A stretch of DNA of 64,000 nucleotides from an uncultured Verrucomicrobiae bacterium (GCA_963739345.1 CAVUAA010000002.1:266713-330712); one strand, 5' to 3'. Positions 50,701 through 53,190 are shown, counted from the first letter of the stretch. Notes: generated by a model not told the origin, from the letters alone. Numbers and translations are program-made.

Positions 50701-52693
50701 TACCCGCCTCACAACCCACACCTACAACACCCTCGGCCAACTCACCTCAACAACCCATCCCGACTCCTCCACTCACACGTTCACTTACGACCCCTCAGGT
50801 CGTCTCGCCACCGACCCCCTCTACACCTACACCTACGACTCCGCCTCCAACATCCTCACCGCAGGCGCCACCACCCGCACCTACGATTCCTACTCACGCC
50901 TCACCTCCGAAACCCTCGCCAACGGGCTCACCCTCACCTACACCTACGACTCCTTCCACCGCCCCACCTCCATCACCCTCCCCGACTCCTCCCAAACCCT
51001 CTACACCTACGACGCCTACCACCTCCGCACCCTCACCCGTCCCGCCTACACCCACCACTACCTAACCTACAATCACCTCTCTCAACCCACCTCCGAAACC
51101 CTCCCCCTCGACCACGGCACTCGGCAAACCACCTACGACCCCATGGGCCGCCTCTTGCGCCTAACAACACCCACCACCACCCAAACTTACGCCTACGACG
51201 CCATGGGCAACCTCACCCAAGCCAACGACACTCACTACACCTACACCTCCCTCAACCAGCTCGACCCCTCCGACTCCCTCCACAATCCTCCCGACGCCGA
51301 CCACCTCAACCAGCTCCCCATTCCCCACACCCCCCGTGGCTGCCCCTCCCACTACACCTATGACACCTTCAATCGTCTTACATCCGCTGGCGACACCACT
51401 TACACCTACGACGCCTTCCACCGCCGCATCTCCTCCAACGACACCCTTTACCTCTGGACCGACCTCAATGAGATAGGCGCTTACCAAAACGACACCCTCA
51501 TCCAGTACCGCCCCCTTGGCCTCACCCCCAATGCCGAAATAGCCTCCGCCCCCGCCTTCGAGCTAAACTCCATCCCCCACGTCCCCACCTACGACCACCG
51601 CGGCTGCGTCATTTACCTTGACGACACCCCCATCACCTACACAACTTGGGGCACCCCCTCCGCCACACCCAGCCCTTGGCTCTTCTGTTCCAAGCGCTAC
51701 GACCCCGAAACCACCCTCACCTACTTCGGCTACCGCTATTACTCCTCCTCCTCCCGCCGCTGGCTTACTCCCGATCCCTTGGGCCACACCCCTGGCCCCA
51801 ACCTCTACGCCTACTGCTCCAACAACCCCCTCTCCCTCCTCGACCTATATGGGCAAGTTCCTGTTGGTCCAATGCACGCTTCTCCAGCAGCTGGTCAGCT
51901 AGCTCGGGCAATAGGGGGTTGGGCTGCACCAAGAGCGGGCAGGTGTGCTGAGTTCGCAGGTGTTCATTTATTAACCGAGCAACACGAACGCGAAGCCATG
52001 GTTAAATGGGGTTGCCGACTCCAGGGAAAGCCCTACATCGCGACGAACTATTTCCCTCAACCATCCTCGGGGCAATTCGGGCACCAGGCCGAATCACCTT
52101 TTCTACGGCACCGGATCATTCCAGGCGTTAGAAATAACCAACAAACTGCGTTGGCCGCGGCAAGATATTTTAATCAAAACTACGCAACTCTCCCCGTGCA
52201 CTATTCGGTGATACCGGGAAGAGGCGCTCTAGGTGAGGCCAATGAGTTGTCCTGTTTGTATATGGGCGTAAACTGCTGTGCCGCAGTTCATTCAGTCGCG
52301 AATGACATAAAAAATGATTTTTCAGAGCTTGGGCCTAATGGCATCCTAGTCCTGTACCCGCACAGCAAGGCTGTGATGGTTACCAAGGAGGCTCTCAAGC
52401 TCACGCCTCACGAGTACCATTGTCGAATTGAAGTGGAGACGATCGGAGGGCCGGATTGGATGAGGCGGGATACTGTAGCCAGAGCTACTAACCACTGTAG
52501 TCCCGCTGACCCGATTGCGTGGCTGGCATATATGAAGCACGGGTGCAATCCTTCCGCCTATGATGTTAGGATGGTTTCTGCGTCTCAGTTTGGCCGGGAT
52601 CATCTGTTCAGAGGAGATGTCTACGGACCCCTGATGGGCCAATTAATAGCTGACGCTGAAATGCGACACTTACCCGACCGGATGGAAGGATGA
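47795..52693 (+). CDS. Rhs/YD-repeat polymorphic toxin with Sec signal peptide and unassigned ~278-aa C-terminal domain
   Basis: 1632 aa. MYRKYLLAALFLTTALWG signal peptide. Rhs N-terminal pattern VDPLGLIHGCVSVLTGDYIETQPDVVV. Dozens of YD repeats (YTYDANNNLTSTTTP, YTYDPLGRLHTTTAPDGGTTSYTYDAEDRLIAQTDPLGHTT). Core-end motif RYYSSSSRRWLTPDPLGHTPGPNLYAYCSNNPLSLLDLYGQ (ends near nt 51856), followed by a unique tail. Confidence 0.9.
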   Translation: MYRKYLLAALFLTTALWGEIRTPGTTAVDPLGLIHGCVSVLTGDYIETQPDVVVNCHEPIALWRVHVSDGSDNKAHSRWRIGQEKIETDIWDTTRRKGHLFFRVDETGSVIQFQVTPIHKKWGLRGDGKPHWQALPKADSYCNTSSGELSGRAHLLNDRLEYSTPSETFTLFRGNGEERLYRHIGKWTRRGLIRRFVGFCGEMYDGKPRGEQETFRLSRVRRPNGNQVFYYYDKEGRLVSIQSSNADKTITFGYISIQYNDHNTVVTTSDGQKLVYTPDNNRPERPLTEITRNGQLVAHFGYHVRSRKNNYMALSHIYRPDGRVRAIEYYYTGDQTPCHQRVHIPDDDFRRGRVSLICEPSAEDGSLQRRYAFYYGYKRKDGDARRDWTDVYDAHGVLTRYNIVNKRLEQVTTYDDGRPIRIIRQGWSGSDLAARTVDGGHTRTYAYDNHHNVTSETLDDILIRTCTYTHFNLLATETVGHLRTTYTYLPNTDLLTTKKTYDHDILISQENFTYDHNAALIHHEIHSGPQHLITRITNRPDGLPILVEELNQTHLTYDPQNRLIQQTTDDKTTTTTYDPHYRIAAHTNPLGHTTTYTYDANNNLTSTTTPTRTTQTTYDHANRPTTTTLFDRTTHTTYDLFDRPTSTTTPDGDTTTYTYDPLGRLHTTTAPDGGTTSYTYDAEDRLIAQTDPLGHTTHTTYNHLDQPLTITYPDETTESFTYTPTGHLLTHTTRDNVLTTYTRDALGRETSATTPHSQTHTTYSGNFLISHTDPINLLTTYTYDPAGRLILTTTPETTLACTYDSHSRLTTTLENDLRLTINTYDLLDRLLTQQTRTLTTYTYDPDSNLLSTTTGPSTTTHTYDPYGRLITTTDPCGNLTTHAHSPHLLITTHPNQTTTHTHTDHAGRPLLTEKHSHHLLSRTAYTYDLNGNLLIEDHSRIQDAQTLNHYILTRTYDPASRLLTLLENDTRLTTHTYNTLGQLTSTTHPDSSTHTFTYDPSGRLATDPLYTYTYDSASNILTAGATTRTYDSYSRLTSETLANGLTLTYTYDSFHRPTSITLPDSSQTLYTYDAYHLRTLTRPAYTHHYLTYNHLSQPTSETLPLDHGTRQTTYDPMGRLLRLTTPTTTQTYAYDAMGNLTQANDTHYTYTSLNQLDPSDSLHNPPDADHLNQLPIPHTPRGCPSHYTYDTFNRLTSAGDTTYTYDAFHRRISSNDTLYLWTDLNEIGAYQNDTLIQYRPLGLTPNAEIASAPAFELNSIPHVPTYDHRGCVIYLDDTPITYTTWGTPSATPSPWLFCSKRYDPETTLTYFGYRYYSSSSRRWLTPDPLGHTPGPNLYAYCSNNPLSLLDLYGQVPVGPMHASPAAGQLARAIGGWAAPRAGRCAEFAGVHLLTEQHEREAMVKWGCRLQGKPYIATNYFPQPSSGQFGHQAESPFLRHRIIPGVRNNQQTALAAARYFNQNYATLPVHYSVIPGRGALGEANELSCLYMGVNCCAAVHSVANDIKNDFSELGPNGILVLYPHSKAVMVTKEALKLTPHEYHCRIEVETIGGPDWMRRDTVARATNHCSPADPIAWLAYMKHGCNPSAYDVRMVSASQFGRDHLFRGDVYGPLMGQLIADAEMRHLPDRMEG

Positions 52694-53190
52694 AAAAATT
52701 AAAATCGCTATTCGCTCTATCTCTCGTCTTTCTTGTTGTGGGGTGTGGTGATGCTTCTCCGGGAGTTCAAATGGAAATTTTCGGTCGCTGCTTTCTAACT
52801 ACTAAGGAATCGTTCCTCTACGAGCAGGATAGTCGGTACTATTTGGAGCTCCCGGGGATGTCAAATCTCGTTCCGCCATCCGTTGAGCTGTACAGGGCAC
52901 ATCCGAAAGACTGGACGGATACAGAAGAGTATAACCTGTATAGGGGCAGCTCTGACTCAGCAAAGGGGATAGTCAAGATCCTCTCGGTTGTTCCCACGGG
53001 AACTTCGATCTGTGTTAGTGGGGCGACGCCTTTTAAAGTCATGGGGACAAATATTTGGGATGTGTACGGTAAGGTAGAATACAGTGGATTTGATCATCTC
53101 AAAGTTAGTTTCTCTTCGTTATTTGCTGGGAATGCGGGTCGTGAACCAAATATAACTCCGAGATCGGAGTATCTGCGCTCAGAAAGCTAG
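52690..53190 (+). CDS. Lipoprotein, putative cognate immunity protein of the Rhs toxin
   Basis: 166 aa. The ATG overlaps the Rhs stop (ATGA). MKKLKSLFALSLVFLVVGC with lipobox LVVGC. No recognisable domain. Confidence 0.6.
   Translation: MKKLKSLFALSLVFLVVGCGDASPGVQMEIFGRCFLTTKESFLYEQDSRYYLELPGMSNLVPPSVELYRAHPKDWTDTEEYNLYRGSSDSAKGIVKILSVVPTGTSICVSGATPFKVMGTNIWDVYGKVEYSGFDHLKVSFSSLFAGNAGREPNITPRSEYLRSES

Follow-up and report, generated by a model that had tools for sequence, protein, structure and literature searches.

What does an Rhs protein carry when its C-terminal end belongs to no recognised toxin family, and what might be the function of a lipoprotein encoded directly behind it? This question is raised by a locus in a stretch of DNA of 64,000 nucleotides, hereafter the window, from an uncultured Verrucomicrobiae bacterium (GCA_963739345.1 CAVUAA010000002.1:266713-330712). 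A gene on the + strand (47795..52693), recognised as an open reading frame (ORF) and by the Pfam RHS_repeat, TIGR01643 and TIGR03696 profiles, encodes an Rhs/YD-repeat protein of 1632 residues, the last 278 of which, beyond the border of the Rhs core (51857..52690, +), constitute a toxin-domain candidate, referred to here as the tail. The following gene (52690..53190, +), which overlaps the Rhs stop codon in an ATGA, encodes a lipoprotein of 166 residues that belongs to a family designated FAM1 and is the candidate immunity or partner protein. An initial annotation had read both genes as a periplasm-acting toxin and its immunity protein, and the tail start at nucleotide 51857, the Ser1524 and His1603 codons and the positions of the ORFs on which it relied were all found in place, and those parts of its interpretation that computation can address were borne out. 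The reading favoured here, to which a probability of roughly 0.55 is given, is that a Sec-exported Rhs protein would deliver an esterase/lipase-like toxin against which the periplasmic lipoprotein would confer immunity, the two forming a polymorphic-toxin module in an environmental chlamydia.

Fold and putative catalytic residues of the tail

The tail remains, as the initial annotation had noted, unassigned to any known toxin family, since no credible match to it was found in sequence searches of Pfam, NCBIfam and the PDB. A word-index search of 5.8 billion proteins returned nothing with the tail itself and only three proteins with a 24-sequence profile, and an exhaustive phmmer search over 1.84 billion cluster representatives gave 24 tail matches at E ≤ 1e-3, one of them a false positive; this protein, P0014, contains TPR repeats, aligned in six short stretches and was dropped as a relative. 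Most of the approximately 23 relatives are the last ~270 residues of Rhs proteins of 1200–1830 residues with signal-peptide-like N-termini, and a minority are short signal-peptide proteins. In the resulting alignment of 24 tails, which are mostly 18–33% identical, G162, S170 and D218 (tail numbering) are invariant and G90, H169, G172 and H249 are conserved in at least 90%; S170, D218 and H249 correspond to Ser1524, Asp1572 and His1603 of the Rhs protein.

The AlphaFold2 (AF2) model of the tail built with this alignment (predicted local distance difference test, pLDDT, 90.1; predicted TM-score, pTM, 0.84) is certainly that of an alpha/beta-hydrolase, without a close solved relative, as the layout read by the initial annotation had anticipated. 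The model consists of an N-terminal helical segment (tail residues 1–65, with helices at 10–20, 23–37, 42–56 and 62–65 in the AF2 secondary structure; 51857..52051, +) followed by a minimal alpha/beta-hydrolase core (tail residues 70–278; 52064..52690, +), delimited with AF2 and Foldseek, in which seven strands (70–74, 83–88, 114–118, 163–169, 191–196, 209–214 and 237–239) form a central sheet with flanking helices. The helical segment is missing in P0004 and P0008, both of them short and with a signal-peptide-like N-terminus, in P0016 and in the short P0003, from which the first motif is missing as well; thus, it is probably a linker or pre-toxin region outside the catalytic core, as far as the comparison of these sequences allows. 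Foldseek searches with the tail model against the PDB gave 172 matches at E ≤ 1e-3, with a top probability of 1.0 and E about 1e-5, and the 50 matches listed of the 172 are all alpha/beta-fold serine hydrolases, namely cutinases, polyester hydrolases, carboxylesterases and monoglyceride lipase; a prolyl endopeptidase and a type II thioesterase are also included among the matches.

The putative catalytic residues occupy canonical topological positions in the model, in the order Ser–acid–His and with the last two after the final strands. Ser1524 (codon agc, 52364..52366, +), the nucleophile candidate in YPHSKAV, lies between strand 163–169 and helix 172–180 and is invariant in 24/24 tails, and Asp1572 (gac, 52508..52510, +), the acid candidate in SPADP and likewise invariant in 24/24, comes right after strand 209–214. 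His1603 (cat, 52601..52603, +), the base candidate in GRDHLF, is conserved in at least 90% and is located in the loop between strand 237–239 and the C-terminal helix 256–271. In addition, Gly1444 (tail G90; 52124..52126, +), conserved in at least 90% within RIIPGVRN (family motif NG(I/M)xN) and placed after strand 83–88, is a candidate for the oxyanion-hole loop, to judge from the model, and catalysis by the Ser1524–Asp1572–His1603 triad would be consistent with this arrangement. The serine and histidine that the initial annotation had singled out are, thus, the conserved residues; it had also pointed to the acidic residues of GGPDW and SPADP, and whereas the aspartate of the latter proved invariant, that of the former is not the conserved one. 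The elbow P-H-S1524-K-A connects a strand to a helix and conforms to the small-x-Ser-x-small pattern, with the His at −1 and a Gly or Ala at +2 nearly invariant. The Pro at −2, which had been regarded as a weakness of the assignment, loses this meaning because A, P, C, V and G all occur at this position within the family, Pro being found also in P0004 and P0022.

None of the 24 aligned tail domains reaches any threshold in Pfam or NCBIfam. Sub-threshold Pfam matches go to Lipase_3 and DUF900 in 7/24 tails, further ones to Cutinase, Abhydrolase_8, DUF676, LCAT, PGAP1 and Tle3, and in one member there is a weak match to Palm_thioest; the best values are 0.004 for Lipase_3 and E 0.11 for Tle3, the latter in 2/24 tails. 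The sub-threshold lipase and cutinase matches in Pfam and the PDB centre on the Ser1524 elbow. Two other candidates, glucosamine-6-phosphate deaminase (16 bits against a cut-off of 326) and a flavodoxin match of the tail profile (E 0.0012, columns 90–159), were rejected because the model and Foldseek give alpha/beta-hydrolases only; both look like local similarity among three-layer alpha/beta folds.

As for its distribution, no relative turned up when genome contigs were scanned with the window tail, and a one-genome-per-species scan with a distant tail subgroup (motif GGGxIIHYAHS, hereafter the A3 clade) found 40 loci, 33 of which bear chlamydial names (Parachlamydiaceae, Waddliaceae, Simkaniaceae and others), whereas the other seven go by ‘uncultured bacterium’ or ‘bacterium’ alone. 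Judged by these names, the family has so far been placed only in chlamydiae, as all members with a taxonomic placement are chlamydial.

The lipoprotein and its conservation beside the tail

The ATG of the lipoprotein gene (52690–52692) overlaps the Rhs stop codon TGA (52691–52693). The encoded protein begins with MKKLKSLFALSLVFLVVGC, in which a signal peptide with a VVGC lipobox can be read (52690..52746, +), MKKLKSLFALSLVFLVVG preceding Cys19 (codon 52744–52746). This cysteine is invariant in the four FAM1 members, whose lipoboxes are VVGC, FWGC, FYSC and VVSC, and comparison with the closest homologue gave a ratio of non-synonymous to synonymous substitution rates (dN/dS) of 0.10, indicative of purifying selection. 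The overlapping lipoprotein proposed by the initial annotation is, thus, on sequence grounds a real gene. It matches no family in Pfam, NCBIfam or PDB sequences, only two members of its family are present in the 5.8-billion-protein set, and metagenome contigs scanned with the FAM1 alignment yielded nothing. A structural comparison of both proteins, which the initial annotation had suggested, was informative for the tail but not for the lipoprotein: the AlphaFold model of the latter, built with a three-sequence alignment (pLDDT 78, pTM 0.73), is mainly beta, and Foldseek found no solved relative for it (best E 1.2, TM-score below 0.3).

The evidence that relates the lipoprotein to the tail comes from other loci. 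In L001, a Joint Genome Institute (JGI) metagenome locus with the same synteny as the window from GreA to Rhs, a tail 86% identical to that of the window (P0001) is followed, with the same ATGA overlap, by a 166-residue lipoprotein 79% identical to that of the window (P0027). In L043, the tail (P0002) is 32–34% identical and a lipoprotein of 165 residues with the lipobox FYSC begins 5 nucleotides beyond it (25% identical over its full length, E 4e-13), and in L047, where the tail (P0006) is 23–27% identical, an overlapping ORF of FAM1 with the lipobox VVSC is found; in L048, the tail P0005 is followed by an ORF with a 4-nucleotide overlap and a signal-peptide start, after which the contig ends. 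The tails with a FAM1 partner (L001, L043 and L047) are the very ones most closely related to that of the window, with which they form one cluster, and the identity of the lipoproteins tracks that of the tails, being 79% where the tails share 86% and 25–27% where they share 24–34%. Thus, in the four FAM1 pairs the two genes are adjacent and diverge together, as expected of toxin and immunity genes, and the order of a variable C-terminal domain followed by its cognate small gene recurs in L001, L043 and L047. The tail itself is under purifying selection in comparison with P0001 (dN/dS 0.14).

Moreover, a hidden Markov model (HMM) of the four FAM1 lipoproteins, searched among all six-frame ORFs, matches residues 238–373 of the tail relative P0004 (E 1.2e-9) over columns 25–168 of 170, approximately the whole mature domain. 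P0004 is, therefore, a natural fusion of a signal peptide, a hydrolase domain that keeps the Ser, Asp and His, and a FAM1 domain; its gene (L044 5001..6137, also in L045 and L046) is located directly upstream of another Rhs gene with a tail of the hydrolase family. Co-occurrence, co-divergence and this natural fusion show, at the level of sequence comparison, that tail and lipoprotein are cognate partners and that this association is conserved.

A second partner family, FAM2, follows tails of other clades. In L042 (a Simkaniaceae metagenome-assembled genome, MAG), L051 (P0022) and L053, the tail is succeeded, with start/stop overlap, by secreted proteins of ~170–180 residues, two of the three with a clear lipobox. 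FAM1 and FAM2 are unrelated (hhalign probability 7%), neither has a match in Pfam, and no homologues of the partner families were found outside these loci. In L042, two FAM2 genes stand in tandem (6618..7148 and 7248..7751), the first overlapping the Rhs stop by 4 nucleotides, and such a duplication would be the pattern expected of immunity genes. That both partner families, unrelated as they are, consist of lipoproteins argues for an obligatory site of action of the partner beyond the cytoplasm, as the initial annotation had proposed. No orphan copies of toxin or immunity genes were detected within the window, and no partner gene stands beside the short proteins P0008 and P0025.

The Rhs shell, the proposed mechanism and its alternatives

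The Rhs protein contains 19 RHS/YD repeat stretches (PF05593, Pfam E 6.9e-67; TIGR01643, 203.7 bits against an NCBIfam cut-off of 15.8), the multiple YD repeats typical of an Rhs polymorphic toxin, and the Rhs-associated core TIGR03696 spans residues 1282–1353 (65.8 bits, cut-off 32.5). The core ends in the motif DPLGH-x18-DLYGQ, located in the sequence at residues 1327–1354 (51773..51856, +), and the tail, therefore, begins at V1355, nucleotide 51857. This border corresponds to the PxxxxDPxGL motif that separates the Rhs core from the C-terminal domain (Poole 2011, PMC3150448). Both aspartates of the pair, D1327 and D1350, are kept at a spacing of 23 residues; the second half of the motif is degenerate, with Pro and Leu substituted (DLYGQ), and relatives have D(L/V/W)(Y/W)GL at the same place. 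In the TcC and Rhs structures, the two border aspartates constitute an autoprotease, and their retention suggests that the tail would be released by autoproteolysis after Q1354.

The N-terminus carries a predicted Sec signal peptide, MYRKYLLAALFLTTALWG (47795..47848, +; read by eye from the sequence), and a basic-then-hydrophobic N-terminus is also present in all full-length relatives. No PAAR or VgrG domain was found in the protein with Pfam and NCBIfam profiles, and the marks of an Rhs protein delivered by a type VI secretion system (T6SS), either an N-terminal PAAR or VgrG-interacting domain or, among the ~40 window ORFs scanned, linkage to T6SS genes, are absent. The core is composed of 24% Thr, and in its DNA the G+C fraction rises to 0.60–0.63 and the GC skew falls to −0.70 (48500..51900), the tail and the downstream DNA returning to ~0.50; this Thr-rich compositional bias accounts for long spurious ORFs in the other frames and on the opposite strand (e.g., 48239..49570, −). 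A scan for promoters and terminators gave no signal above shuffled sequences. In L001 (6906..11512), the Rhs protein is called in two pieces, of 713 and 503 residues, with small opposite-strand ORFs between them, which may be due to a frameshift in the Thr-rich repeats or to faulty assembly of this region.

According to the mechanism proposed here, the Rhs protein would be exported by the Sec pathway through its N-terminal signal peptide, with the 278-residue tail enclosed in the YD-repeat shell, and the Rhs aspartyl autoprotease, to judge from its retained double-Asp motif, would free the tail between Q1354 and V1355. The freed tail, a short helical segment plus a minimal alpha/beta-hydrolase with a putative Ser1524–Asp1572–His1603 triad, would then act as an esterase, of lipase or phospholipase-A type, and attack ester-linked membrane lipids from the extracytoplasmic side; this chemistry is suggested because of the lipase- and cutinase-like matches of the elbow together with the location of the partner. 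The translationally coupled lipoprotein, anchored in the periplasm, would bind and block the hydrolase, thus sparing the producer and its kin, and the victims would most likely be neighbouring chlamydiae without the cognate lipoprotein, a host membrane being a nearly as likely target. Provided that the two genes are a toxin–immunity pair, rival chlamydiae and the host have roughly equal odds of being the victim.

Several observations weigh against this mechanism. The TM-scores of the tail to solved hydrolases are just 0.39–0.47, with 8–15% identity, a generic likeness from which the substrate class cannot be read, and the window elbow is PHSKA instead of the usual AHSxG, with Gly at +2 even in the 86%-identical P0001. 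No inhibitory mechanism is readable for the lipoprotein, given its three-sequence model and the lack of a solved-fold match, and a cis fusion such as that of P0004 sits uneasily with pure inhibition. Both partner families have few members, with four FAM1 genes and one fusion and with four FAM2 genes in three loci. Moreover, the A3 clade, with about 40 loci, keeps the triad, and most of these loci lack a closely coupled gene for a small secreted protein, which implies that the hydrolase domain is not always dangerous to its producer; the downstream genes read in this clade are of the housekeeping type, e.g., those of a metallo-beta-lactamase-fold protein and a methyltransferase. Finally, no T6SS family was found among the ~40 window ORFs scanned, and no route of delivery into another cell is evident.

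The nature of the genome bears directly on the target. The window contains Na+-NQR genes, a topoisomerase I (TopA) with a C-terminal SWIB domain (20506..23058) and a GreA fusion of 724 residues (37107..39281; NF004969, 838 bits against a cut-off of 697), and because the last two are hallmarks of Chlamydiae, the genome is, by its gene content, chlamydial and of the obligate-intracellular type. Two genes upstream of the Rhs gene, separated from it by a membrane ORF of 289 residues (46841..47710), a protein of 1669 residues (41723..46732, +) bears at its C-terminus a eukaryote-type deubiquitinase signature of the UCH/USP type (PF00443, 24.2 bits against a gathering threshold of 23.9) and is likely, from this signature, a host-directed effector. 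Both the chlamydial setting (GreA fusion, TopA-SWIB and the Legionella_OMP paralogues described below) and the proximity of this protein favour the alternative that survives best, doubtful as it is, in which the hydrolase is released against eukaryotic host membranes, such as those of the inclusion or vacuole or of lipid droplets, or serves egress, and the lipoprotein only shields the envelope of the producer during the transit of the enzyme through the periplasm, no bacterial rival being involved. Also in its favour, a partner gene is missing from most of the tail family and neither a T6SS nor another module for delivery between cells was seen, and a use against the host has been proposed for alpha/beta-hydrolase and other toxin domains that amoeba symbionts carry without immunity genes (Zhang 2012). 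Nevertheless, the clade of the window does have a tightly coupled and co-diverging partner, and the existence of two unrelated partner families, together with a tandem duplication, is a signature of a toxin/immunity arms race that would not be expected of simple self-shielding. In addition, toxins of chlamydiae and symbionts that are accompanied by immunity genes have been read as agents of intraspecific conflict (Zhang 2012; Poole 2011).

A broader scenario built on the toxin–immunity module, unlikely as a whole, is that obligate intracellular chlamydiae fight each other within a shared host cell or inclusion by means of Sec-exported, T6SS-independent Rhs proteins that bring a phylum-restricted, lipase-like hydrolase to the envelope of co-infecting chlamydiae, with at least two unrelated lipoprotein families as strain-specific antidotes, and that the clades without partners have been redirected at the host.

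It is improbable that the lipoprotein is instead a helper, i.e., a membrane-anchored foldase, an activator or an anchoring cofactor, with Lif, colipase and activating Tli as analogues. The same gene order and translational coupling are found in lipase–foldase operons, and the FAM1 domain placed in cis with a triad-bearing hydrolase in P0004 fits a cofactor better than an inhibitor. Furthermore, a Tli immunity lipoprotein is also needed to activate its Tle lipase (Jensen 2023). However, dedicated chaperones are usually homologous throughout a family, and this enzyme family has two unrelated partner families and, in most of its members, none. Neither FAM1 nor FAM2 matches the lipase-chaperone family in Pfam, and the mainly beta model of the lipoprotein is unlike Lif, which is helical. 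Besides, a partner fixed in the membrane of the producer cannot travel with the toxin inside a secreted Rhs shell. An immunity protein that does more than inhibit is another matter, since the P0004 fusion and the activating role of Tli leave room for a helper function that the partner may, by analogy, also have.

That the tail belongs to another class of hydrolase (a peptidase, amidase or thioesterase with peptidoglycan, lipoproteins or proteins as its substrate) or is a catalytically weakened binding domain is very improbable, for although the fold hosts many chemistries, the Foldseek matches extend to prolyl endopeptidase and type II thioesterase and one member has the weak Palm_thioest match, Ala occupies elbow position +2 where the family usually has Gly, and Tox-ABhydrolase-2 could not be assigned to the lipases (Zhang 2012), the triad is invariant or nearly so in a domain under purifying selection, the commonest weak family matches are to lipases, cutinases and esterases, and the 210-residue core lacks the added domains seen in peptidase-type members.

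Neighbouring genes, significance and known systems

Elsewhere in the window, at least 11 same-strand paralogous genes for outer membrane proteins of the Legionella_OMP type (PF05150) occupy 314..15631, in an array broken by a PutA-like gene (5986..9504) and a TauE exporter gene (10515..11300). In the syntenic region of L001, a protein of 444 residues replaces the 1669-residue protein with the UCH signature. The syntenic loci L044 (3415..4974, 519 residues, with what resembles an internal duplication) and L047 (3171..3959, 262 residues) share a gene upstream of their Rhs genes, to which no family could be assigned. Approximately 240 nucleotides downstream of the lipoprotein gene, two small opposite-strand ORFs (53427..53780, −, and 53777..54181, −) overlap by 4 nucleotides and appear to encode multi-pass membrane proteins, for which no family was found. 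They are followed by two divergent paralogues (54197..55045, −, and 55204..55956, +; 38% identity, E 8e-58) with signal peptides ending in ...HC and without a family, except for a weak DUF6695 match of one of them.

The analysis adds one toxin-domain family and two families of partner lipoproteins, all of them missing from Pfam and NCBIfam and without a relative of solved structure, in a phylum, the Chlamydiae, thought to need few interbacterial weapons. If the toxin–immunity reading is true, the locus would be a concrete and testable case of competition among intracellular bacteria and an instance of Rhs delivery independent of type VI secretion. The coexistence of partnered and partner-less clades would offer a natural experiment on the conversion of an antibacterial toxin into a host effector, or the reverse, and even if the enzyme turned out to be ordinary, a clean annotation would be gained for large chlamydial proteins now called ‘hypothetical’.

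Among known systems, minimal hydrolases such as cutinases, polyester hydrolases, Bacillus LipA and carboxylesterases supply its best structural and some weak profile matches and share with the tail a small lid-less core of ~200 residues with the same order and topology of the triad; unlike them, it carries an additional helical segment at its N-terminus, and no family signature is shared at threshold. A closer functional parallel is found in the Tle phospholipases, which are neutralised by a periplasmic Tli lipoprotein (Jensen 2023). As in Tle1-4/Tli, the window combines a serine alpha/beta-hydrolase with a small-x-Ser-x-small elbow and an adjacent gene for a periplasm-facing lipoprotein; unlike Tle1-4, the tail falls within no Tle family of Pfam, as it does not attain any profile threshold, and is associated with an Rhs shell and putative Sec export instead of a T6SS.

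C-terminal alpha/beta-hydrolase domains of polymorphic toxins have been described as Tox-ABhydrolase-1/2/3 (Zhang 2012, Biol Direct 7:18), to which the tail is similar as far as their descriptions can be compared. According to its description, Tox-ABhydrolase-2 occurs mainly in proteobacteria and is linked to SUKH immunity, whereas here, on the same descriptive basis, all hits with an organism name come from chlamydiae and lipoproteins are found as partners. In the amoeba symbiont Protochlamydia, this domain occurs without an immunity gene and a host target has been suggested (Zhang 2012), which fits the partner-less A3 clade, since this includes a locus from a Protochlamydia MAG (L026).

As regards the Rhs proteins themselves, an Rhs C-terminal domain and immunity pair has already been proposed in Waddlia (Poole 2011, PMC3150448; Waddlia chondrophila Rhs D6YTT8). 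The window protein shares with this and with the Rhs proteins of E. coli and Dickeya and the WapA of Bacillus a YD shell, an Rhs core, a PxxxxD..G. border, a distinct C-terminal domain and a small downstream ORF, and it differs from T6SS-linked Rhs proteins, with their connection to PAAR or VgrG, in having a predicted Sec signal peptide. It also departs from the usual Rhs pairs in its degenerate border (DLYGQ), its 24% Thr core and a tail that is not the more divergent part, as the identity to L001 is 86% in the tail and 73% in the Rhs core. Finally, whereas the usual Rhs pair consists of a nuclease and a cytosolic immunity protein, that of the window would consist of an enzyme of the envelope-acting type and a lipoprotein.

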